A stretch of 64,000 nucleotides of DNA from Magallana gigas. Taxonomy: Eukaryota. A program made the position numbers and the translations under genes. Below, one piece after another: positions 1,491 to 15,599 of this stretch (its first letter is position 1; the number at the start of each line of letters is the position of its first letter). Under the pieces are notes generated by a model, which was given only the letters and a program-made list of their open reading frames with translations, was not told the origin of the DNA and searched no databases. The stretch spans positions 42,284,001 through 42,348,000 of the forward strand of contig NC_088856.1 of the NCBI RefSeq assembly GCF_963853765.1. Direction: 5' to 3'.

Positions 1491-1694
1491 TATAGTGTTT
1501 TTACACCTATATCATATGTGGGTTGCCCCGAACTTTCCGATACATAGCTGATTTGGTCTGTATTGGAATACGGCTTGTTCTCGTTCAGGCAGCAGTCCAA
1601 AGTGATCGGGGTCTTCGCCACGGGCTCCCGCCAGGTGACGTCACAGCCCGTCATCATAGGTAACTCGTCCTTGGAGTAGTCGACAACCACTACA
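1491..1694 (-). repeat. 3' LTR (204 bp)
   Basis: Matches 10347-10550 except one base (AACTTTCCGA vs AACTTACCGA); - strand termini TGTAGTG...CACTATA. Confidence 0.96.
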
Positions 1695-1712
1695 CTCCCC
1701 TCCGTTTTCTTC
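1695..1712 (-). promoter_or_regulatory. Polypurine tract
   Basis: - strand GAAGAAAACGGAGGGGAG abuts the TG of the 3' LTR. Confidence 0.88.
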
Positions 1713-2043
1713 GAAGGGACTCGGCCCAAACTACCAGTGGGCCGGCTCCGTCCACTCCACTAAGCTGGACTTACAACCAACACATCACCAGGGGGCGCGT
1801 AACGCCCATCCCAATCAATACTGGGATCAACATCCCAATCTATACTGGGATCAACAGCCCTCACTTTTACGAGTTCAGAATATGGGCAGATGGGGCCATA
1901 CAAGACATGATGGCCTCCGCCCAATAGAAAACGCCAACTAACCGTCCAGGAAACAGGGTCTGGGGGGGACATAGGAGGGCGCGTACCTACCACTCCTCCA
2001 GGATCAAGATGTGGACCCGGCGGGCTCCAGCATACCTGCGAGG

Positions 2044-2862
2044 TTAGTCTACTGCTATGTACCCTCCTGTCGCAGTCCCAGGTGGCGGGCGGGGGAACTC
2101 CGGAGAGAACTCTACTCCCCTCGCTCTTCCTGCAACCCAGGGGTCCCAGGGCTCCAAGGCGCCCACCAGCTCATCCTCGGACGAGGTCGGGTCTGGGCCA
2201 TAGTCCTCCGGCTCCTCCTCGGGCGGGGTCGCTGCTTCATCTACTTCGGTCTCCTCCCGTCTGAAGCTCTCTCGAGGGGTAGTCGCTTCATCGTCCTCGG
2301 ACTCCTCCTGTCTGAAGCTCTCTGGAGGGGTAGTGGCGTCCTCGTCCTCGGACTCCTCCAGGCAGATGCTCCCCAGGACTGGGGGATCAGGGGCATCCCA
2401 GTCCTCATGGCAAGGAGCCGGGGGCGGGGGTGGCAAGAGCCTAAACATCCCGTACTGCGACAATGGGTGTCCGCTGACTGTCTCGTTGCTCCACAGCTCC
2501 CGGTAGGCCCTCCTTAGGTCCGGGCCCAACCGGGAAACTAGATGTGCCTGTACCCTCCAATGTAACAGGAGAGCGGGATGTAGCCGACCGAACAGGGCAA
2601 ATCGGTGAGGGGGGTCCTCCCCCACAAACCGGCACAGTGCCTCCATGGCCCGATTCAAATCGGTGGGAACACCGGCGGCGGGCTCCTGGAACACTTCGCC
2701 TGTTGGGACGTCCCTCGCCAGGTCCTCTGGAGTGGCTCCTTCCCCCAGCAGGTGGTGAGCCATCCACATAAGAACGCGGTACCGGAGGCTGGCCCCCGCC
2801 TCAGGGGGCACAGACCTCCGGAACACTGGATGTAGGTGGGCCACTGTCACATGAGTTCTCAT
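2044..2862 (-). CDS. Gypsy accessory ORF3, unknown function (272 aa from ATG; frame open back to 2970)
   Basis: Long ORF between pol and the PPT; ATG in ACCATG context overlapping the pol TGA; His/Trp-rich N-half and acidic C-half with 3x17-aa repeats. Confidence 0.6.
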   Translation of the reverse strand: MRTHVTVAHLHPVFRRSVPPEAGASLRYRVLMWMAHHLLGEGATPEDLARDVPTGEVFQEPAAGVPTDLNRAMEALCRFVGEDPPHRFALFGRLHPALLLHWRVQAHLVSRLGPDLRRAYRELWSNETVSGHPLSQYGMFRLLPPPPPAPCHEDWDAPDPPVLGSICLEESEDEDATTPPESFRQEESEDDEATTPRESFRREETEVDEAATPPEEEPEDYGPDPTSSEDELVGALEPWDPWVAGRARGVEFSPEFPRPPPGTATGGYIAVD

Positions 2863-5800
2863 GGTGCGGGTCCGCACCAGGCACCCCAGGAACGGGCAAG
2901 TCGAACTTGGCCCTCTCGAACCTCTCCTCCTCGCGGCCCCCGGTGGTGGGGGGCCTGCGGGGCCTCTTCTTCATCGTAATCATCGTCATCTCTGTAAAAC
3001 AAAAAGACCCTATTAATAGATATTCCCCCCATACACGTCGGACACACAAACTGGTCCATAGTGGTGGCGTCCTCCGGCGAGACTCCCACACACAAGCCGT
3101 GGTACCAGCAGTCGCACTGGTCACACTGGACCATTAGTTTTCCGTCATCAGGACGATGACAGAGGCAATAGAGCTCGGTGTCTGTGGATGTTTCTGGTGA
3201 CTTTTCTGTGGTATCAGAGGATGACTGGCTGGGCCTCGGGGGTCGGTCTCCTCCTCGATAGGGTTCCTCAGGAGTCTTACCCCGCTTCCGAGGACGTCCT
3301 CTGCGGCGAGCGGGTTGAGGCCGACAGTTATCACCCTCAACTGGGCCCTCGATGGCTCTTTTTCCCTGAAAAGTCGAACCTTGCGCCTCGGAATCTTCAT
3401 CAGATCTTACATCACATGGTGAGCCACTCACGAACTTCTCCCGATATCGGGCCAGCCACAAGGGAATATCCCTGTCGTTACACTTTTTAAGGCGGTCGTG
3501 GTTTGCCACCATCACAGCTGTCTTAGTCTTCACACGGTAAAGGTAAGGTGACAGCCTCTTGAGGATGATTCCTGGGCCCTTCCAGGATAGGCTCAACTTC
3601 CGGCACTTGCCCTTAACAGTCGCCGTATCTAGCAGGTATACCAAGTCACCCTCCTCAAAGGGGCGGGTGGCTGCCTTAATGTCAAAATCCCTCTTCATCC
3701 GCTCTTCCGAGGTGTTCAAGCGTCTACGGGCGGTCTCATGCGCCGACTGTATCCTCTCCTCTAGATCTGTCACATAAGTACCAACATTCACCGGATCCTC
3801 TTGAAGGGGAGGCCTGTACATTAAGCTGGCTGGTGTGTTAACTTCCCTGCCCAACATCAGTTTATTGGCGGTGAAACCAGAGTTACGGTTCACTGCAGAG
3901 CGCAGAGCCCCAGCTATCTGTGCAAGATGCTCATCCCAACAATCCTGGGCCTTGTCAATATAGCATCTGACAGCATCCATGAGAGTCCGATTATAACATT
4001 CAACCTGTCCGTTAGCCGACGGGCGATAAGGGGTGGTACGAGCCTTGTGGATCTCCAAGAGTTCACACACCGCCGTGAACAGCTTGCTCTCAAAATTACG
4101 CCCTTGGTCTGTGAAGATCTGGAATGGGCACCCAAACCTAACGAAGAACTCATTTACCGCGGCTGTAGCTGTAACCTCGGCCGTCTGTGAAGGGAGGGGA
4201 ATGCATTCCACCCATTTTGTGAACTGGTCTACCATGACCAAGACATACTCATTTCCCCTCGGAGTCCGTGGAAGTGGTCCTAAGAAGTCCAGGTGCACCC
4301 TCTCCATGGGTGCCCCAGCATGGTACTTAATCATCTCCGCCCTGGCGTGGCGCTGGGGACGTTTGTTTCTACTACAAGGGCCGCAAGTACTGACAAAGTT
4401 CTCAGCCTCTCTCATCATTCTGTACCAAAAGAAGTGCTCCCTCAGCCTGGCTTTAGTTCGTTCGATTCCCTGGTGTCCAGCTGCCGGCACCTCGTGGCAA
4501 AGGCGCAGTACCTCTCGTCTCAGGTCACGGGGCACAATCAAAACTCTTTTCTTCTCTCCCCCCTCCTCTATCTCTTTCCAAAGGACTTTGTCACTATCCA
4601 GATATAACAGATTCCTGTTGATGTAGTAGTGTTTCACAGCCGGGCTGGTCAGAAACAATTCGCCCTCATCTGGTCCCAGTTCTCCCTCCAACCAATCCAA
4701 GATCAAGCCTAACTCTGGGTCATTAGACTGGCTAAGACTCATCTCCCTAGGGGTGAGTCCTACAAGTGACGTCGGGCCTTCGGGGTCCGCCGGAGAGACT
4801 CCCATCACGCAAGCGAACTGAGGGTACCTGCTGATCCGGATATGGGTCCTACAAGGTCCATCCGGGCTACTCTCGCCCTCAGAGTCAATCTCAGGATAGG
4901 GAAAACCGCCAGTCCGTCCCAGAAGTCCTCCAGATACATATCCGAGGGCTATCTCACTGACCGATGGCTGGGCTTCTCCTGATGCACGGCCGTCTACTGT
5001 CCCCTCGAGCTCGTCCTCCGGCAAAGGAGAGTAAATCCAACTTCCTGGCCTAGCAAGCGGGGCTACATCGTCTACCTCATCAGTAAATACATTCCACAAT
5101 TGATGGGCTCTGGTGCACTTACGACATCCACCGCAGGGCAAGTCACTAAGATTCACAGTGAAGTCCACCCCCTGACATCTGGAAGACATGGTTGGTCGAG
5201 AAAGCGCGTCAGCATTCACGTGACGCTTACCGGGCCGATGTTGGATGACCATATTGTACTGGCTGAGCTCCTCCAACCAACGAGCTAGTTGATCCTGGGG
5301 GTACCTAAAGTTCAGCAACCAGATGAGACTATGGTGGTCCGTACGTACAATAAATCTCCGGCCTAGTAGATAATGGCGATACATGCGTGTGAACCGGATG
5401 ACGGCCAGGAGCTCTTTCCGAGTAGTACAGTATTTTTTCTGCTCCGCGGACAAGGTGAGGCTCCCGTAGGCTATGGTTCGCTCCTGCCCCTCTTGAACTT
5501 GGCACAGCTCAGCTCCTATGGCTTCTGCAGACGCATCTGTGTCCAGCACAAACTGATCATTGGCTGTAGGCAGAGCCAGTACCGGGGGTGAAGTGAGGGC
5601 TCTCCGGAGGTTCTCAAAGGCTGTCTGCTGCTCAGGTCCCCAAACAAAGGGTTTCTTGCCAGTGATGTTATACAGCGGATGTGCCATCTGAGCAAAGCCA
5701 GCAATAAACCCTCTATAGTAATTGGCGAAGCCTAGGAACCGCTCCACCTCCTTAACATTAGTGGGAGTCTCCCAATGCTTCACGGCCTCTATGTATTCAT

Positions 5801-7559
5801 CCCCCATCTCTACTCCCGTTCCACTGACCTGCCTTCCCAGAAACTCCACTCGGCGCCGGAACAGCTCACACTTCTTGGGCTTGAACTTCAAGTCATAATC
5901 TCGGAATCGCTGGAACACCTGTCGCAAGTTAGCCAGGTGGTCATCAAAATCACTCCCCAGCACCAGGGCGTCATTCAAGAAGGCCAGAACGATACTCCAG
6001 GTCAGCCCGCGTAACACTAAATTCATTGCCCGGGAGAAGGTAGCAGGGGCATTACAGAGACCAAACCCCATTCTCCGGAACTCAAATAGGCCATACCGGG
6101 TAATGAAGGCAGTTTTCTTTCTGTCCTTGGGGCTGATCATAATTTGATGAAATGCGGAGTTAGCGTCTAGCTTCGAGAACCACACATTTCCCGAGAGGGT
6201 ATCAAGGCACTCATCAATGAGGGGAAGGGGAAAAACATCCTTCCGGGTGACATTGTTCAACCGGCGGTAGTCGAGACACCACCTGACTTGTCCGTCCTTC
6301 TTACGGATGAGGACTGGCGCTGAAGCCCACTCGGACATGGAGGGCTGGATCACTCCAGCGTCAAGCATCTTTTTGAGGTGCGCCTCCTCTTCGCCCGCAA
6401 AGAACACAGGAGTACGCCGCATCCTCTCCTTGACTGGCGGTGCATCTGCAGTGTCAATCTCATGCTCAAGGGCAGTGAAGTTTCCAAAATCAAACTCACT
6501 CCGGGCAAACACATCTTGGAACTCAGACAGCAGGCTAGCAAGTTGGGACCGCTCCTCATCACTCAACTCCGCAGAGGATCGTTCTAGCAGGTCCTGCAAA
6601 TGGGTGGGTACTTCCGGTGGTGTGCCCTCGGGCCCACTCTCAGCCATGCTACGCACCTCCCTCATCAAATAGGGCACCGGCACGTATAGCTCCGCCTCGA
6701 CTGCCTCTCCGATAACACTGCCCTCCTCCAAGGACACATCTTTTCCAGACGCATTAACAAAGCAAGCCAGGGACGCCTCTCCCGCAGCGTGATACGTATG
6801 TGGCATGAGTAAGGCATCCGACAAGTCCTCAATCCTTGGCACAACCAGGTAATCTGACAGTCTTCTCTCTAGCCTAAAAGGGCACATGACTACAGAGCCT
6901 GCAGGAACTCGAACCTTCCTCACCAAAGTCACATTGGCTTCCGTCCGAGCATTCCCCCGTCCATAGGTCATCTGAATTGTCTCACCGCCGAGAATCAGTA
7001 TCCCATGCCTCAGGTCAAGCTGAGCACCGTGGTCTCTCATGATGTCCATCCCCAGTAGCATCTGGTCCTTGAGAGGAGCAACATACAGGTCAACCTTAAG
7101 TGTGCGCTGGCCCACACGAAAATCAAATGGTCCTGCTACAAAACCCTTAAGTCTCGCTCCGTGTCCTGCCTGCAGCAAGGTAACATGCCTTTTAATAGGG
7201 GGCTTTTGTTCTAGCTGGTCATAAAACATCTTCCCTAGGACACTAACCTCTGCCCCGGTGTCCGCCACGGCCTCTATAGATAACCCTTGGATCCTCAATG
7301 GAACCGAGTAACTGGTCTGTGGGCGTACCTGCCCCACCACCACACACAGGTCCTCTACCTCCCCGGCCGTCTCACTGGACTGGGGCATCCAGTCCTCTTC
7401 AATGTCCTCCATGACCTCAACCTCAGTCTCCCTAAACTCGGCAATCTCTACACTGAAATCCGGCACACGCTCAGGACTCGGTTGGAGTTGAGAATCCCCT
7501 CCCCGGAACCACAGGTTCATCATCAGAAAACAGATCGGGTGACTTGGACCGCTCAAATC
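2859..7559 (-). CDS. pol: Pol polyprotein: aspartic protease, RT (FLND variant), RNase H, integrase, AT-hook, PHD finger
   Basis: ADTGA protease; WASAPVLIRKK/CLDYRRLN/KLDANSAFHQI RT motifs; DTDAS...ELLA...TDH...ADALSR RNase H; HHCC plus D(HLDF)-D(TDQG)-E(QVE) integrase; WKGP GPY/F-like motif; frame open from 7559. Confidence 0.95.
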   Translation of the reverse strand, partial: DLSGPSHPICFLMMNLWFRGGDSQLQPSPERVPDFSVEIAEFRETEVEVMEDIEEDWMPQSSETAGEVEDLCVVVGQVRPQTSYSVPLRIQGLSIEAVADTGAEVSVLGKMFYDQLEQKPPIKRHVTLLQAGHGARLKGFVAGPFDFRVGQRTLKVDLYVAPLKDQMLLGMDIMRDHGAQLDLRHGILILGGETIQMTYGRGNARTEANVTLVRKVRVPAGSVVMCPFRLERRLSDYLVVPRIEDLSDALLMPHTYHAAGEASLACFVNASGKDVSLEEGSVIGEAVEAELYVPVPYLMREVRSMAESGPEGTPPEVPTHLQDLLERSSAELSDEERSQLASLLSEFQDVFARSEFDFGNFTALEHEIDTADAPPVKERMRRTPVFFAGEEEAHLKKMLDAGVIQPSMSEWASAPVLIRKKDGQVRWCLDYRRLNNVTRKDVFPLPLIDECLDTLSGNVWFSKLDANSAFHQIMISPKDRKKTAFITRYGLFEFRRMGFGLCNAPATFSRAMNLVLRGLTWSIVLAFLNDALVLGSDFDDHLANLRQVFQRFRDYDLKFKPKKCELFRRRVEFLGRQVSGTGVEMGDEYIEAVKHWETPTNVKEVERFLGFANYYRGFIAGFAQMAHPLYNITGKKPFVWGPEQQTAFENLRRALTSPPVLALPTANDQFVLDTDASAEAIGAELCQVQEGQERTIAYGSLTLSAEQKKYCTTRKELLAVIRFTRMYRHYLLGRRFIVRTDHHSLIWLLNFRYPQDQLARWLEELSQYNMVIQHRPGKRHVNADALSRPTMSSRCQGVDFTVNLSDLPCGGCRKCTRAHQLWNVFTDEVDDVAPLARPGSWIYSPLPEDELEGTVDGRASGEAQPSVSEIALGYVSGGLLGRTGGFPYPEIDSEGESSPDGPCRTHIRISRYPQFACVMGVSPADPEGPTSLVGLTPREMSLSQSNDPELGLILDWLEGELGPDEGELFLTSPAVKHYYINRNLLYLDSDKVLWKEIEEGGEKKRVLIVPRDLRREVLRLCHEVPAAGHQGIERTKARLREHFFWYRMMREAENFVSTCGPCSRNKRPQRHARAEMIKYHAGAPMERVHLDFLGPLPRTPRGNEYVLVMVDQFTKWVECIPLPSQTAEVTATAAVNEFFVRFGCPFQIFTDQGRNFESKLFTAVCELLEIHKARTTPYRPSANGQVECYNRTLMDAVRCYIDKAQDCWDEHLAQIAGALRSAVNRNSGFTANKLMLGREVNTPASLMYRPPLQEDPVNVGTYVTDLEERIQSAHETARRRLNTSEERMKRDFDIKAATRPFEEGDLVYLLDTATVKGKCRKLSLSWKGPGIILKRLSPYLYRVKTKTAVMVANHDRLKKCNDRDIPLWLARYREKFVSGSPCDVRSDEDSEAQGSTFQGKRAIEGPVEGDNCRPQPARRRGRPRKRGKTPEEPYRGGDRPPRPSQSSSDTTEKSPETSTDTELYCLCHRPDDGKLMVQCDQCDCWYHGLCVGVSPEDATTMDQFVCPTCMGGISINRVFLFYRDDDDYDEEEAPQAPHHRGPRGGEVREGQVRLARSWGAWCGPAP
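3033..3170 (-). other. PHD finger (C4HC3) at the Pol/integrase C-terminus
   Basis: YCLCHRPDDGKLMVQCDQCDCWYHGLCVGVSPEDATTMDQFVCPTC. Confidence 0.93.
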
Positions 7560-10038
7560 TCACCTTCAGCCAACTACGTGCCTTCCCGCTCTTCGTGCAA
7601 GAGCGGGCCTCAGCTGCTTGCTGGTCACAACTTGACTTCTCCGTAGGTTGTCCCTGAACTCTATCATCTACGGAGTGCCTTCCTGCCTCCGTACTTCTAT
7701 CCGGGGTCAGCATGCGCACGGCTCCTGAAAGCCGATTCTCACTGGAAGATCTATTCCGGAACCTAGGTCCTCCGCGGTTCCCCTCTGCTGGATTGGCACC
7801 TCGATTGGGTGGGGGGTGTCTCTCTGCCCCACCTACCCCTCCATCTGACCTACGCCTATTATCCAAAGGGCACTCCCGACGGAAGTGTCCTCTTTCACCG
7901 CACCCGTAGCACAAACTTTCCCTGGGACCCCCACTCTTACTCATAGGTGATGGGGTGGCCTCAAGCTTCCCTCCGGCCTCCCTCAGGGCCATCTCCAGTT
8001 GATACACCCGTCCTCTCAAGTCCTGCACCTCTTTACTCTCTGACAAGGCGGGGGTGTCTCTCTTCTCCCTCAGGGCTTCTTCTAGCTTAGATACACGGCT
8101 CGCAATCTCATCATTAGACTTCCTGTCTGCCTCCACTCCCTCTGACCAAGCGGCCTCCTCTGTCAACTCCCTCACTGTCTTATGCCGGTGAGGCTTGCTG
8201 CGGCGCGAGTGTTGGTAATACTGCATTCTGTCCAATGCCTCCTCGACCGTCTTAGGGCTGCCATCCAGCGCATGCAGGCCAGCGTCAACATCTTCCGCAC
8301 CATAGCATAGGCGGGGGATGGCCTGGGTGTGAATGTCTGGCAACTGGGGGAAAGCTCGTGTGGCTAATGTGAGCACACGATCTGCCCATTCTCTCAGGGA
8401 CTCACCGCTGTTCTGCGTTGCAGACTGGAAATTGAGTTGGTGGGTGAGATCCGGAGCCGAGGTACCAAAGCGCTTGTCAAACTTCTTGAGGGTGTCCTTA
8501 AACCGTGGACGGGGACAGACTTCCAGTAGGAGAGTATAATACTCGCTGGCTGCGCCCTCCAGGAAAAAGCAGAACTGGTCATGTTGCTCGGCCTTGGTCC
8601 ATTGCTGGCTGCGCGAGAGCCTCACGAACTTATGAAGGAACGCCTTCCAGCTGGATTTGCCAACATACCGCAGGTCCTTGTACTTCGGCTTGCTACGGGG
8701 CGCAGGTGGCCTATCGCCGTGACTGCGTAATGTGCGGCGCGAGGTAGTGGTAACAGGGTGGGGCAAGGGCTGGGTAGGTAATGCAAAGGGTGGACGATGT
8801 TGCCGGGTCAGCAAACTGGGCGGCCCAGCGGGGGCCTGGGTTCTCCCGTAATCAGGTGAAAGGTCCCTGGGTGGGGGGCCATTGGGTTGCTGTGGGGCAT
8901 GAGCATGTATGCTAGGATTAAGAAAGTGTACCCCGGTCTCCCTGGGAGAGGACTCGTACATTTGTGGGTAAACCTGAGCTACTCTACCTCCCCCCTCCTG
9001 TCTAAAATAATAAGGCTGGGGCGGCACCACAGGTGCAGGGGCAGGGTAACCAAGGCTGCTAGATGGAGGTACGAACAGGCCCCAGGGGGTGCCATCAGGG
9101 CTAACTACAGTTTGATAGCCCGGGAAGGGGTAGGGCGTGGTATGTGCATAGCCTGGGTCGACATGTGACTGGTGTAATTGCCCCGAGGTGGAAGTCCCCC
9201 CACTAGATGTCACTACAATCTGTCCCTGGGTCGTAGAGGTCTGCGTTGTAGAGCCCTGCACTTGCAAATCAGTGAGCTGGGCCGAACTAGGAGCTACATA
9301 ATTGTTCCCCGGAAACGGATTCGTCAGGACTGAGGAGGCCCCCAGGTGACTGGCATGCTGACCCCCCAAGGGCTGGGGTGCGGGGCCTGTGGCCCCAGCA
9401 GGAGAGGGGTGGGGCTGCTGACCAGGGGTGGGTGGGGAATCGAAGACCAAGGCCTGGGGTGCCAGTGCAGGACTGGCTGAAGATACCGGCTGAGGCAAAA
9501 TAACAGGATCCCTGGACTCAAGTGTAGCCTTAGCACTATGGCCTGGCGGGGATTTCCCAGGGGTAGGGGCCACATAAGAACCGCGTGAAATGGGGTCCCC
9601 ATATATAGCACTGGGTGGGACAAAGTCATAATCCCCCACCGGCGAACTGCATCTTATCACAGACCCCTGACTAACACCTGAATGTACTTCACTAGGGACC
9701 TGAAACTGTGCTGGCCTAATATAACTGGCACCCTGGGTACTACCAACCCCCCTCCCCTGACGGTTGGGCAACGCAGTTTCACCCCGAAGGTACCCCGTAC
9801 TACTCACCGGGGGGTGACTTTCTTCCTCGCTGTCTGAAGCAGAGTACATGTGCGCTTTCACCGATGGTCTAGGAGTGTAAAGGTGCTCATCCTCTTCATC
9901 ACTTAGCCTACCATAACTATGCTTGCGAGACGAGCGCCCAATTTGAACAGAAGGTTCCCCCATGGGCGTTATGGTGTCATCGCTATCACTTTCGCTAAGC
10001 CCTAACGCTGCAAAGGCGTTCTCTAAAGAATCGTTCAT
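7471..10038 (-). CDS. gag: Gag (~855 aa from the first ATG): Pro/Ser-rich N-terminus, capsid domain, CCHC knuckle
   Basis: Open frame; capsid-like YVGKSSWKAFLHKF...FLEGAASEYY; knuckle CYGCGERGHFRREC. Confidence 0.9.
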   Translation of the reverse strand: MNDSLENAFAALGLSESDSDDTITPMGEPSVQIGRSSRKHSYGRLSDEEDEHLYTPRPSVKAHMYSASDSEEESHPPVSSTGYLRGETALPNRQGRGVGSTQGASYIRPAQFQVPSEVHSGVSQGSVIRCSSPVGDYDFVPPSAIYGDPISRGSYVAPTPGKSPPGHSAKATLESRDPVILPQPVSSASPALAPQALVFDSPPTPGQQPHPSPAGATGPAPQPLGGQHASHLGASSVLTNPFPGNNYVAPSSAQLTDLQVQGSTTQTSTTQGQIVVTSSGGTSTSGQLHQSHVDPGYAHTTPYPFPGYQTVVSPDGTPWGLFVPPSSSLGYPAPAPVVPPQPYYFRQEGGGRVAQVYPQMYESSPRETGVHFLNPSIHAHAPQQPNGPPPRDLSPDYGRTQAPAGPPSLLTRQHRPPFALPTQPLPHPVTTTSRRTLRSHGDRPPAPRSKPKYKDLRYVGKSSWKAFLHKFVRLSRSQQWTKAEQHDQFCFFLEGAASEYYTLLLEVCPRPRFKDTLKKFDKRFGTSAPDLTHQLNFQSATQNSGESLREWADRVLTLATRAFPQLPDIHTQAIPRLCYGAEDVDAGLHALDGSPKTVEEALDRMQYYQHSRRSKPHRHKTVRELTEEAAWSEGVEADRKSNDEIASRVSKLEEALREKRDTPALSESKEVQDLRGRVYQLEMALREAGGKLEATPSPMSKSGGPRESLCYGCGERGHFRRECPLDNRRRSDGGVGGAERHPPPNRGANPAEGNRGGPRFRNRSSSENRLSGAVRMLTPDRSTEAGRHSVDDRVQGQPTEKSSCDQQAAEARSCTKSGKARSWLKVRFERSKSPDLFSDDEPVVPGRGFSTPTES

Positions 10039-10327
10039 TTTCAAAATGGCGCACACCGGAGCACGTGGCCAAGACAGAAAAAATAGTGCAAAGATAAATG
10101 CAAAATATAAAAGTATGATGCAAAAACAACGTTGCCTAAACAAATAAAAGAATCCTACTCTAAGCTAACAATACTATCATCGAATGCTATAAGTTCAATA
10201 AGTTTAACCACGCGGAGCCCCCAAAAATGGCGGCTACACACGTTTATTTTGAAAAATTTGACTCAAGAAGAAAAAATTCTGACAGACTACGGGAAAAAAA
10301 TTTTCCTTTCGCTAAATCGGAGTTCGG

Positions 10328-10345
10328 GCCTCGAGTTGGGCGCCA
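10328..10345 (-). promoter_or_regulatory. Primer-binding site, tRNA-Lys(CTT)-like
   Basis: - strand TGGCGCCCAACTCGAGGC 1 nt after the LTR; the first 11 nt match the tRNA-Lys1,2 PBS TGGCGCCCAACGTGGGGC. Confidence 0.8.
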
Positions 10346-10346
10346 A

Positions 10347-10550
10347 TATAGTGTTTTTACACCTATATCATATGTGGGTTGCCCCGAACTTACCGATACA
10401 TAGCTGATTTGGTCTGTATTGGAATACGGCTTGTTCTCGTTCAGGCAGCAGTCCAAAGTGATCGGGGTCTTCGCCACGGGCTCCCGCCAGGTGACGTCAC
10501 AGCCCGTCATCATAGGTAACTCGTCCTTGGAGTAGTCGACAACCACTACA
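10347..10550 (-). repeat. 5' LTR (204 bp)
   Basis: Second LTR copy, followed on the - strand by 1 nt and then the PBS. Confidence 0.96.
10492..10499. promoter_or_regulatory. Palindromic CRE/ATF site in the LTR (also 1636-1643)
   Basis: Exact TGACGTCA in both LTRs; function not demonstrated. Confidence 0.4.
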
Positions 10551-10560
10551 GTCCGTAGTT

Positions 10561-10751
10561 CCACAGGAGTCGGCGATTTTATCAATTTGTTGTAAATAAA
10601 TGAGAAACAAGCAAAATCCTACCAGTGAGCTTCGCGAGCGTAGCGAGCGAAGCGACAGGATGGCAACGAGTTTTCTAGAAGCTCACTGGTAAGATTTTTG
10701 CCTGTTTCTCATTTATTTTCCAGAAATTGATAAAATCGCCGACTCCTGTGG
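10561..10751. mobile_element. Foldback/MITE-like element with ~72-bp imperfect inverted arms
   Basis: CCACAGGAGTCGGCGATTTTATCAATTT...CCAGTGAGCTT versus AAGCTCACTGG...AAATTGATAAAATCGCCGACTCCTGTGG; TAGTT direct repeat on both flanks. Confidence 0.75.
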
Positions 10752-11663
10752 TAGTTCATTCATGTTGAGGATAGGTAAAAGCCTTAAAGAGATTATCCCT
10801 AATTATTAAGTCTACACAATTTCAAAATCAAACAGCTATAAATACCTGTGTTTTGAAACAAAACTTCTTTGCGATAGTAGTGTACTGTTTATATTTTTGT
10901 CTGACTTCCCTGTACAAGTGTCGATGGATTCGGTCAAGACTGGTTTAAATTGAATGTCGATCCCGATCAATATATTAACAGAATTACAGACGATCTTGCT
11001 AAAAGGATTTTAACTTGTTTTTTGAGGAACTTTTTTGTTGGAGAGAGGAAGATGCTCGCACGGCAATTCAATTTTCTCCCACAATATTGCACAAAAGTCA
11101 TACTGTATATATAATATATCATCATTTAATTTTTGTTCACAATAATAAAGTCTTTCTACAAATGTATAATTATGTAGTTTAAAAAAAATCAAATGATTAT
11201 GTCCGTCCCGGGACGTATATACTAACGTACCCATATTTACTAAAGTTCGTAGACGTAGACGTAGACGTAACCTTAGACGTAGCGTACGTTTACGTCTAAA
11301 ACGGTATTCACAAAATGACGTAGACGTAAAATTACGTCATAATCGGACGTAAATCTACGTCTGCTCTATAGGTACGCGTATCTTATCAAACATGGCGGCG
11401 ATTTTGTTTACACTTGCGAGAGAGAAGAGTCTGAGACGTCAGAGAGTTTTCCGGGACCGGACTAACCCCTTAGATGTCTTCTGCGACCGAGAACTGATTT
11501 GCCGTTATCGATTCCCGAGGCGGACCATCGTTGATTTCATTCAGCAGGTGGACAGAAGACTTTCACGACCTACTAACAGGTCTCATCCTTTGCCTGTTTC
11601 ATCTATGGTAAGTAATTTCGCTGATATTGAACCCGATGTATTTCTAGTTGCAGTATAATTTTC

Positions 11664-12020
11664 ACCCAAGCATTTCACCCCCCCCCCCCCAAAAAAAAAT
11701 CCGAATATATACATTCATCACCATGATATTGATATGATAAAACACAATGTTAAACATGCTGTCTGGTTGATTAATTACTGACAAACAATGATTAGTGTCT
11801 TGTACAATTATCAATCATGACCCTTCTTCATCCAACAATTTACCAGGAATCCCAAGCATTTCACCCCCCCCCCCCCTTTTACAAAAAATCCGATATATAT
11901 ATAATCATCAGAATGACATTTATGTGATAAAACACAATCTTGATGTTACACATACTTTTACTGATGAACAATGATCAGTGTCTTTTATGAATACCCATTA
12001 TAACCCCCCCCCCCCTTTTG
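11664..12020. repeat. Degenerate ~185-bp tandem duplication with poly-C runs
   Basis: CCCAAGCATTTCACCCCCCCC...AAAAAATCCGA..TATAT...ATAAAACACAAT occurs at ~11665 and ~11851. Confidence 0.65.
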
Positions 12021-12605
12021 GGCATCAATTTTTTCACAACAGTATGCACGGACCCTCAAACGGAGGGATATTCTTGTTTTACGGGTGAAACTGTGTTAGG
12101 GGTTTTGAAACCTATTTTAAAAATATTATTTGAGATATTTCACATTAATTTTTCAACGAGAATATATTTGCAGATAAAGGATATTGGATGAATATATGAA
12201 ATTTCATTGTTATTATCTGTAACATGTTGTAATGCATTATTATAGACGACAAGGTTCAGTATAAAGGGGTACACAGTAGTTCCACATACGTGAACTTATT
12301 AACAGTTCACAGTTTTACTTCCTAACTTTTAGCGATATGCGTGAAGTCTTGAATACTTCTATCTGGACAATGTTGTGTAATTACATATAACAGGTATATT
12401 CAGTCCAACCTGAGCATATGCGACTGCATACAAATGACAATGAAATTCCACCTACACGTATAATTCTTTTATTTATAAACACACAGAAAATTAATTTATA
12501 ATAAGATGTTTGTTATTTGGACCACAATGCAAAATTCAGGACTTTTGATAATTGTTATTCCTTTGTGTCCTCATTAAAATTACACGGGGTATAGAAATTT
12601 ACAGT

Positions 12606-12639
<34 letters not shown>

Positions 12640-13180
12640 CAACACTAGGCAGGATAAAATCGGCTTCGTTGAGTCACAATACAAAATATCTGGACGTGGT
12701 ATAATACATGTAGATTCTATACAAAAAAATCTGTTTCCCCCTGGATATTCTTATATTTACCAGTATAATCAAGTCCCTTTTCTAACACGATTTTATAGTC
12801 GTGTCACATTCAGCATACATGTACATCAAATTCTAAACCCAATAATCATCCAGGGGCCAAAGTTTAAACAATTTTAAAATATATAAAAATGCTATATAAA
12901 TAAGTAAAAGCATATATAATAACATTTCAGTTTTTGTGAATAATTAATTTGTTTTCCTTTGTACAACGGAATCCCCTTTGTGGCCCCACACTACTCCTAA
13001 AGATTGTGATTTGAACAAATTTGAATCTACACTATCTAATATTCTTTCACAAAATTTACAGCTTTTCTAGGCAAATCTTTTTTAAGAAAAAGATTTAAAG
13101 ATATTTCTCTGTATTCCTATGAAAAAAATTGTCCACCCCCCTTTCCCCCCAATAACCCAATCTTACCCCATGGTAATCAT
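12606..13180 (+). mobile_element. Truncated, decayed Helentron/HINE with one degenerate Cg170-like monomer, in nuclease intron 1
   Basis: Starts ACAAGAGGCCCATGGGCCACATCGCTCACCTGAGC like 27106; monomer remnant GTGGCCCCAC...GATTTGAACAAATTTGAATCTACACTATCT. Confidence 0.75.
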
Positions 13181-15599
13181 TAATTGTCCAAACAACTATT
13201 CTATTGTAGACATTCTGTACCAAAGAAAATTCAAAAACATGTATCTATATTCATTGAAACTTTAATTTAAATTTGAATAAGCAATAACATTAACACACGA
13301 GAATTAATTTTTACAGGTTTTGGCAACTCTTCGAGTTCTGTCCAAAGGAGACTTTCAGTCTGAGGCTGCTGACATACATGGTATTTCTCAACCCTCATTC
13401 AGCAGAATGTTTATGGGAGTCGTTGATGCCCTGAATGCCAGCCTTGACAACATCATTTTTCCGATGGGGCAAGAGGAAATTCTTCGGACAAAGGAGGACT
13501 TTTTGAGGGTGGCAAACTTCCCCAACGTAGTTGGTGCCATTGATGGAACTCTGATTCCAATCATGGGAATGACTGGAGACGATGAGCATGTTTTTGTGTG
13601 CAGGAAAGGGTTTCATGCCATAAACATGCAGGGAATCGTGACCGCTGACCTGAGGTAAATAAAAAATTCTATTTTTAAGTGGACAATCAGTGAAATTACT
13701 ATGTTGGGTCTATAAAACTATCAACATTTTTTTAATTTTTTCCTTATGACTGCATTTATATACCAACATCTCATTTCAGATTTACTAACATCGTTTGCAA
13801 GTATGGGGGTGCCACACATGATGCATACATACTTGCAAACTCGAGCATTCCCGAGATAATGGACCAGCTGCCAGGTGGAGGATGGCTTTTAGGGGACAGT
13901 GGCTACCCCCTTCGTCCATGGCTAATGACTCCTTTCCTCACGCCCCAAGCAGGACAACAGGAGAAGTACAATGCCTGTCACATCAAGACAAGAAACTGCG
14001 TTGAGAGGGCTTTTGGTGTCCAGATTTCGGCAAGTATAAAAAAAATAGATTTCATTCAAATATTAGACTTGCAGAACAGACTCCAAACATAAAGCATATA
14101 AGCAAAATTTCTTACCTGGGTAACACTTCTCTTTTATCTTCTCTTTATTTCTTTAATTTAACTTTTTCCCGAGACTGCACTTCCAATGGGACAACATCGC
14201 TCCCCCAACTGATAATGAGCTTACAATACAGAAAAAGGAGAATTAGATACAGAACACCCAAATCATAAAATTATTTCAAATTCATTTTTTTATAAAATTA
14301 TTTTTAAAACATCACTAACCCATTTACAAATGGGCCATACAAATAGTTGCAAAAACATGCAAAATTCTTTGAAAAAATAGAAAATAATGTTTGGGACTTG
14401 ACAATGCATAAATTTATACTTTCCAACAAACGCATGACTAGGTGACGGATCATAATTCATATCCATGTTATTCAACAATAATATTCTGTTACAGATGTCT
14501 GCACAAAACAGGAGGAGCTTTGGCCTACACCCCTTCAAAATGTGTAAGGATCATCGAATGTTGCTGCCGCCTCCACAACAGGGCCATCGAAGACCGCATT
14601 CCAGCACCAGCAACAGGACAAGTACCCATCTTCTCCGATAATGACACTTTCAATGCTGAAACTATTGTCAATGCAAACGCAGTTAACACCAGAAACATCA
14701 TTGTTAGAAGATTTTAATTATTTAGTGGAATTGTCTGTTTATTTGATATATTTGCCTGTCCAATAGTTAGTAATTTTTGATAAGTAATGTGCAACACCCT
14801 GTTAAATGTAGTTTGATATTTTAATTATTCAAATAAGTGATAATTTTTTTTCTGCTTACAGGTCATTATCTTTGAATTGTACAAAAGTTAGTACGTTAAA
14901 TGTGTTCTAAGATTGATGTTTTCCAATTTGTTATCTAAAAAATCATGTTCTACATTGTCAACTCAATTATGGTAAACGATTTGGTTATTGTTTTAGATTT
15001 GTTTTATTTGATATTTTTAAAGAGAGATATCATTTAAAGCTGCCATCTTACTGTAGAATTGTAATATTCCATTTTTGAATTCTCCATCTAACTGGAACAC
15101 ATACAAAGAAACATTTTTTTGTTAATCCACAGTGTCATTTTCAATTTTTTTTTTTGTAAATCAAAAAATTAATACTGTTCAACACATCAAGATAATGCCA
15201 GAGAATGACTTACTGTACTTTTTAATTTACATTTTATATGCATGTATTATTGTTAAAGTTGTCTTCAGGTGGTACTCTTAAAATACATTTATGAAATATA
15301 TTGAGTCCCTTGAAATTTAGCATGTGTTTATTTGTTATTTGATGAATTTAAAAATGATAAAGTCTATTTTCCAAGACAATTCATTCATGTACTTAATGTT
15401 TTCACATTCTTTAAAATATAAACAAAAATATTGTAGTCCATATGGTGGATAATTATAATAAAATTTAATATAACCAGCAAATTAAAAATGCTGCTTCCAT
15501 ACAAGTAATTGTAATTGTAATAATGGTCAGAAAAGGCAGAACAAGATATCTGTGAGCTTAATTTTCACTAGTAATACCCCGCTCTGATGTGAATATGCA

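Follow-up and report, generated by a model that had tools for sequence, protein, structure and literature searches.

A third gene of an oyster Ty3/gypsy retrotransposon, probably expressed by splicing from a start codon in the long terminal repeat

Does a start codon overlapping the stop of the preceding gene mark a recoding signal, or may it be an accident of one particular copy? The question is raised by a 64,000-nucleotide stretch of the Magallana gigas genome (NC_088856.1, positions 42,284,001 to 42,348,000; hereafter the window, in which all positions are counted from its first letter), where the minus strand carries a Ty3/gypsy retrotransposon bounded by long terminal repeats (LTRs) and having, 3′ of pol, an additional open reading frame (ORF), ORF3. 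The initial annotation reported that the ORF3 ATG (2862-2860) overlaps the pol stop TGA (2861-2859) as ACC-ATG-A and opens 272 codons up to the stop at 2046-2044, that a 3′ splice site consisting of TATTAAT (3018-3012) and TTTTACAG precedes an exon starting from 2991, and that the ORF3 frame is open back to 2970, reading CPFLGC-x9-H-x4-H there; all this is confirmed on the minus strand. Stop-restart translation, splicing and −1 frameshift fusion to Pol with its terminal PHD finger were offered as possible routes of expression. The analysis presented here favors ORF3 as a conserved accessory gene likely produced from a spliced message that joins an ATG located in the LTR to the acceptor at 2991, the ATGA overlap being a by-product of a frameshift.

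ORF3 constitutes the 3′ end of the element, which has LTRs, a target-site duplication, a primer-binding site (PBS) and a polypurine tract, and whose class is given by gag with a knuckle and by the pol order protease–reverse transcriptase (RT)–RNase H–integrase. The supposition that ORF3 is a real gene maintained by selection is borne out by sister copies, since the ratio of nonsynonymous to synonymous substitution rates (dN/dS) is 0.13-0.31 for its core in 11 of 11 pairs, which indicates purifying selection (from the integrase controls L032 and L033 were dropped, their ungapped slices crossing frameshifts, and one control for L037 is saturated at synonymous sites). Its lack of env appearance also stands: the translations, inspected without a dedicated predictor, show an acidic N-terminus, an acidic and proline-containing tail and no long hydrophobic run, and neither a signal peptide nor a furin site or transmembrane anchor can be read in them.

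Judging from the aligned copies, the ATG is not the true start of ORF3. It specifies a methionine between the Cys and His ligands of a zinc-finger-like motif C-x4-C-x9-H-x4-H (2836..2898, minus strand, with an Arg-rich stretch just before it), which thus encloses the ATGA at 2862-2859, and many of the 55 matches found by ORF3 in its own genome (G000) start ahead of the ATG, between query positions 2 and 5. The site is readable in 28 copies out of 31 loci tried; ATG is found in 8 of them and CTG, TTG or ATA in the other 20, the codon being that of Leu or Ile in the sister family B, while the combination of an overlapping pol stop with ATG is confined to L001-L003. The overlap is thus not a conserved property of sister copies. 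TGA in the +1 frame is present in 27 of the 28 copies because it is spelled by any NTG-A codon pair; the ATGA overlap is no more than chance. For the 23 codons upstream of the ATG, comparison with L033 gives a dN/dS of 0.06 when they are read as ORF3 and of 1.35 when they are read as pol, and these codons are therefore selected as part of ORF3 rather than as the end of Pol. The “good Kozak” context ascribed to the ATG is only partial, with A at −3 but A instead of G at +4.

The origin of the overlap is traced to a C-rich run at 2945..2957 (minus strand), where the window copy, L002 and L003 leave the frame of the zinc motif; the pol stop overlaps the ATG because the window copy is frameshifted there. 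The frame entered at the acceptor continues into the zinc motif in L004, L008, L012-L015 and L056-L058; in G000, acceptor and motif share the frame in five of the eight acceptor-holding copies of family A (L054-L058), and the same is true for family B copies L008, L013 and L015. PHD and ORF3 are found in one chain in Logan proteins P0003 (99% identical to the window ORF3), P0177, P0179, P0181 and P0185, and a Crassostrea angulata protein of 1972 amino acids spans the region from protease to the ORF3 tail. Near-identical proteins bear the name Magallana gigas, and oyster metagenomes are among the runs that contain them, which identifies the host as an oyster. The proposed −1 frameshift fusion to PHD-Pol is not supported, near-identical copies running through PHD, acceptor and zinc motif in a single frame. 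Other lesions of the window copy concern gag and pol, which occupy different frames (one frame in L031, L036, L037 and L039), the RT active-site motif, which lost one of two aspartates kept in 8 of 8 other copies, the 3′ LTR, in which the donor dinucleotide described below is altered relative to the 5′ LTR, and ORF3 itself, stopping ahead of a conserved 19-codon tail (1987..2046 together with the premature stop at 2046-2044, minus strand) that is translated in other copies of families A and B. Between these families the tail (2043-1987) is near-invariant, unlike the acidic region preceding it. Taken across these copies, the ATGA overlap looks like a by-product of the frameshift in a damaged copy.

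The shift within the C-run may reflect either real slippage or an assembly error. In the latter case the G000 consensus would be wrong in the length of the homopolymer and would conceal genomic copies that are in frame, and this is rather unlikely. Contigs of four out of four runs do differ from the window by an indel at the C-run and have no stop at 2044 (one further contig of run X17 ends at the C-run and is uninformative), and three C-runs of unequal length are all off by the same register; L058 from the same assembly, however, has a long C-run and yet is in frame, the window copy possesses independent lesions outside homopolymers, and the public proteins P0178 and P0183 suggest that copies elsewhere may be shifted as well. 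As this alternative alters only the cause of the overlap, the model of expression remains unchanged.

The evidence for splicing comes from both ends of the predicted intron. The branch-like TATTAAT, the pyrimidine tract and the acceptor AG (2993-2992) occupy 2991..3018 on the minus strand, with the exon start at 2991 in phase 2 of the PHD frame. By an ad hoc pyrimidine score this acceptor ties first among the element's 322 YAG sites, and 22 of 23 loci from two families with ORF3 cores ~57-60% identical retain its AG, so that the site can be regarded as more than chance and, as had been supposed, likely functional. On the donor side, the sole LTR stretch aligning between families A and B is LTR positions 154-192, which contains ATG TAT CG|GTAAGT in the window (10388..10401, minus strand; ATG 10401-10399, five bases, then the donor with GT at 10393-10392, phase 2). 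Out of 39 LTR matches 30 were fetched and 29 have the motif; ATG at −8 together with GT is retained in 27 of these 29, the exceptions being the window's own 3′ LTR and L100, and the five bases between ATG and donor vary (TATCG, AATCG, TATAG, TACAG, TTCAG, TATAT). The donor ties fourth among 534 GT sites, again by an ad hoc score. Phase 2 at both sites would give M-Y-R (or M-N-R, M-F-R, M-Y-I) followed by an acidic linker, so a conserved donor and acceptor in compatible phase, as expected for a spliced subgenomic ORF3, are present. The initial annotation had overlooked this LTR-borne ATG with its donor. It had likewise missed that a conserved tail lies beyond the premature stop and that ORF3 is related to those carrying TatD, as considered below. 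In other ORF3 families each of seven LTRs out of seven has a GTAAG-like donor that lacks an ATG at −8, and all six acceptors tested are followed by an ATG no more than 56 nt away; in L064 the first such ATG starts a frame of four codons, that of ORF3 coming next. Pol ends before ORF3 in families C, D and in those with TatD. Two further candidates were rejected, namely a second acceptor at 10135, which in the window copy would give Gag a hydrophobic N-terminal extension from the LTR ATG (its phase differs in L085 and L087), and a third-frame ORF past the acceptor (MTMITMKKRPRR...), having no Pfam hit and not kept in family B.

The following scheme is consistent with these data. The LTR supplies ATG-NNN-NN|GT, and the acceptor past PHD is in matching phase. 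Splicing out of the PBS, gag and pol would produce a protein beginning with M-Y-R and composed of an acidic linker, Arg-rich stretch, zinc motif, helical domain and acidic tail. Because undamaged copies of families A and B have no stop between PHD and ORF3, their Pol polyprotein would likewise carry this module at its C-terminus. In the window the frame breaks in the C-run, and the predicted spliced product would be only 46 residues long, terminating at the TGA that overlaps the internal Met. Less firmly, strong splice sites might deplete unspliced genomic RNA, which the module could help to preserve in a manner resembling CERV or Rev.

Splicing is inferred because the evidence is comparative and no junction was observed, and several points weigh against the scheme. 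Junction reads ending at 2991 were not found: the 10394-2991 joint is absent from raw RNA runs X21-X24, which are shallow (33-192 mapped reads each, about 1 in 100 of each run being read, with a depth of ~1 at the acceptor), and from the joints listed for RNA contigs X15, X17 and X19. This search is a weak yet the sole direct test of splicing. The 27 LTR hits include paired LTRs and near-identical copies and correspond to approximately four or five independent types. Two further LTR ATGs lie upstream, at 10513 and 10510; they are in another phase, and if transcripts include them, translation from them would stop right past the junction. The zinc motif is out of the acceptor frame in 15 of 23 loci (L001-L003, L010, L011 and ten decayed loci within L017-L030), and L001-L003, the G000 copies nearest to the window, are all in the shifted register despite different C-run lengths. 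The gene calls of P0178 and P0183 begin with the internal ATG of the overlap, and the function proposed for the module below has no supporting fold match. Finally, the donor in foamy virus LTR suppresses 5′ polyadenylation (PMC3694450), and by analogy the oyster LTR donor could be retained for poly(A) control instead of splicing.

The last point leads to an alternative in which the module is made solely as the C-terminus of Gag-Pol (integrase-PHD-module) and serves chromatin or DNA targeting, the splice signals being ancestral or devoted to poly(A) control. It agrees with the frame open from pol to ORF3 in L037, P0181 and P0188, with the foamy virus precedent and with the lack of a junction in RNA data. 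We consider it unlikely, because it leaves unexplained the ATG fixed at −8 in the phase matching the acceptor, the T-rich acceptor inside the coding sequence of both families, and families C, D and those with TatD, where a pol stop comes before ORF3.

Selected stop-restart at the ATGA in a young sub-clade, with Pol or else the spliced peptide of 46 residues translated beforehand, is very improbable. The register common to L001-L003, the calling of P0178 and P0183 from the internal ATG, A at −3 and the proximity of stop and start (within ~20 nt, ATGA 2862-2859) speak for it. Its product, however, would be devoid of both cysteines of a motif conserved over hundreds of clusters, only 8 of 28 copies have the ATG, its place being taken by Leu or Ile codons in family B, copies 99% identical are in frame, and the window copy carries three further lesions. 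The motif TGGGA, an 18S-complementary element like that of a termination upstream ribosomal binding site (TURBS), is absent from ~220 nt upstream on the sense strand. That the C-run drives programmed −1 frameshifting or transcriptional slippage tuning the module amount is hardly credible. In its favor, the run differs in length from copy to copy, and the shifted register recurs in three of them; against it, the window copy shows no slippery heptamer of the canonical form X XXY YYZ, downstream folding is unremarkable (z −0.94), and family B is in frame without such a run.

Returning to the product of the favored spliced message, its core comprises 160 residues, belongs to no Pfam family and has 601 representatives at E<=0.001 (50%-identity clusters). 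Four ligands of the zinc motif are invariant in 14 rows of alignment A1 and conserved to 90% or more over 77 rows, zinc binding being a putative property. The spacing x9 departs from the classical C-x2-4-C-x12-H-x3-5-H, and no Pfam hit, including zf-C2H2, was obtained at E<=1. The core is modeled at a predicted local distance difference test (pLDDT) score of 93 as a small two-strand region with the zinc motif followed by seven further helices, this helical, unnamed part being encoded at 2446..2835 (minus strand). Foldseek searches of PDB and BFVD returned nothing at E<=0.001, viral fusion proteins included, a test of env type that covers the fusion families listed in Pfam, PDB and BFVD. The best VIA comparison has Z 3.1 with a root-mean-square deviation of 3.5 and 68 aligned, a PDB sequence search with the core returned a single row at E 0.42, the best ESM Atlas match (0.85) is unnamed, and no match to the core was found in phage records. 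The missing fold match does not show that the fold is new. Relatives of the core that have names are bivalve proteins (Saccostrea, Ostrea, Crassostrea, Pinctada, Mytilus), the host range being read from protein names. Tentatively and by analogy, the module may be a nuclear zinc-dependent nucleic-acid-binding unit, formerly a partner of TatD nuclease, that acts on RNA or DNA of the element, most likely in CERV- or Rev-like fashion; chromatin targeting via the integrase-PHD fusion or an anti-silencing role are alternatives.

The partnership with TatD, a predicted nuclease, is seen in 50 of 76 core homologues scanned (mainly the longer ones out of 150 listed). Gypsy elements L064-L066, L069, L070 and L075 of G000 have core and TatD 3′ of pol, and the window core is homologous to the N-terminal part of such ORF3s (E 5e-42 for L069, 3e-18 for L075, 4e-12 for L064); in L080 TatD is present and the core match is weak (E 0.08). 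The HxH, E, H, H, D pattern of TatD is readable in L046 and L069, and L046 matches solved TatD/YcfH structures. Domain scanning did not find TatD in the window ORF3 or in families A-D. On the unrooted RT/RNase H tree of 20 rows these nuclease-less families form two supported groups, A+B and C+D, among TatD-bearing lineages, the branch separating A+B from C+D not being starred (93/93), and this topology suggests repeated TatD loss.

Several related loci deserve mention on their own. L064-L066 (G000 C3, C4 and C2) have LTR pairs 100% identical, open gag and pol and a 531-codon ORF3 frame coding for a diverged core plus TatD; this is a very young TatD-carrying family. In L046 (2943-6451) and L074 (2772-9304) a core-TatD ORF is located between LTR-like repeats without a pol match, so that both are apparently non-autonomous elements keeping only ORF3. 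In the decayed element of L078 (976-1407, minus strand) and L079 a metallo-beta-lactamase-fold segment (PF00753, E 1.3e-8), presumably MBLAC1-like, takes the place of TatD after the core. In P0067, P0139 and P0173, the last of them from Mytilus coruscus, the core precedes a weak CIDE-N-like tail (E 0.002-0.009, under the curated cut-off). An intronless frame of 1177 codons in L045 (2836-6366, minus strand) encodes two core domains and a diverged TatD with no pol nearby and is possibly a domesticated copy; similarly long proteins are Saccostrea P0021 and P0020, the latter in an 89-member cluster.

One may conjecture from this diversity, as a possibility short of an even chance, a large undescribed invertebrate clade of Ty3/gypsy elements, in which a donor in the LTR gives rise to a PBS-less message for a zinc-helical carrier of new fold with swappable cargo (TatD, metallo-beta-lactamase fold, CIDE-N-like tails or none), whereas in the lineage of the window the LTR would have gained a start codon and the carrier would have become both a free regulator and the tail of integrase-PHD.

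The remaining anatomy of the element, all on the minus strand, is as follows. The 5′ LTR (204 nt, 10347..10550) and the 3′ LTR (1491..1694) have one difference, which hits the donor dinucleotide of the latter, and they are flanked by the 4-bp target-site duplication GGAC (10554-10551 on the 5′ side and 1490-1487 on the 3′ side). The PBS TGGCGCCCAAC (10335..10345), which we take to be of tRNA-Lys type, lies inside the predicted intron. It is followed by gag with a CCHC knuckle (7471..10038) and pol (2859..7559) encoding protease, RT, RNase H, integrase and, 3′ of integrase, the PHD finger (3033..3167; PF00628, E 5.5e-8). Three 51-nt repeats coding for the acidic tail of ORF3 are located at 2218..2370, and the polypurine tract at 1695..1708. 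Both LTRs hold the palindrome TGACGTCA (10499-10492 and 1643-1636), presumably resembling a cAMP response element (CRE-like) and also found in family B LTRs. An inverted repeat at 10561-10751 (56-nt arms, 93%), similar to miniature inverted-repeat transposable elements (MITE-like), adjoins the 5′ LTR, and many reads terminate there. Elsewhere the window contains split frames at 11353-14092 (in our assumption, Harbinger-type transposase-like), a tandem repeat at 1-853 with a ~387 bp unit and copies 95-98% identical, a 596-codon frame at 20672-22462 on the plus strand (presumably B-box/NHL-like) and an exon at 41010-41741 on the same strand, which we assume to be laminin N-terminal-like.

With regard to its wider meaning, the small set of accessory genes of LTR retrotransposons gains a third gene that does not look like env and whose unnamed domain is modeled with confidence. 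Among bivalve gene models named “TatD-like”, many of those with the core domain would appear to belong to transposons. Moreover, a stop-start overlap can arise from one frameshift upstream of an internal Met-Arg pair and may thus mislead the reading of a single copy. No description of TatD or the ORF3 core in LTR retrotransposons was found in the literature, Repbase and subscription journals, which may hold such families, being outside this search; the main text of a mollusc LTR survey contains 0 occurrences of ORF, PHD, TatD and nuclease (PMC6238403).

Comparison with known systems places the window ORF3 among variants of spliced non-env ORF3s and not among recoding signals. Termination-reinitiation of the calicivirus TURBS and SART1 type uses overlapping stop and start codons (PMC10275272), and the AUGA of the window copy is alike in this respect, but in the oyster the overlap is unconserved, falls inside a domain and is restricted to frameshifted copies. 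In Drosophila gypsy, an errantivirus, the spliced env/ORF3 message builds its ATG at the junction, from AT in the gag region and G (PMC2585583). A third gene after pol, an acceptor at the pol end and a start codon supplied by splicing (in the oyster by prediction) are common to both, whereas the oyster LTR holds the whole ATG together with the donor, upstream of the PBS. Moreover, the oyster product does not look like an envelope protein, and families A and B have it in one frame with Pol as well. Foamy viruses likewise have their major splice donor in the LTR, so that it is duplicated in both LTRs (PMC3694450), but it is in the oyster that a conserved coding ATG precedes the donor. CERV of the C. 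elegans element Cer1 is an accessory protein translated from spliced mRNA, for which RNA export was demonstrated (PMC10309623). Similar traits are the gypsy-type origin, a candidate nuclear localization signal, a possible zinc finger rich in cysteine and domains that match nothing in PDB; CERV, however, has exons in common with gag as well as domains H, M and G, and for the oyster module export is supposed and no homology is claimed. CERV and the foamy virus donor serve as functional analogies. Bdelloid Juno and Vesta carry enzymatic ORF3s (DEDDy exonuclease and GDSL esterase), and ORF3s are described as typically spliced (PMC5408684). They resemble the oyster elements in being gypsy-like, in having a non-env ORF3 with nuclease cargo and in its family-specific gain and loss, but the oyster cargo is TatD (once a metallo-beta-lactamase-fold segment) mounted on a constant unnamed zinc-helical core, which the family of the window retains without any nuclease. 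The contribution of the window lies in the core domain that stays constant, in the forms of it lacking a nuclease and in the start codon placed within the LTR.

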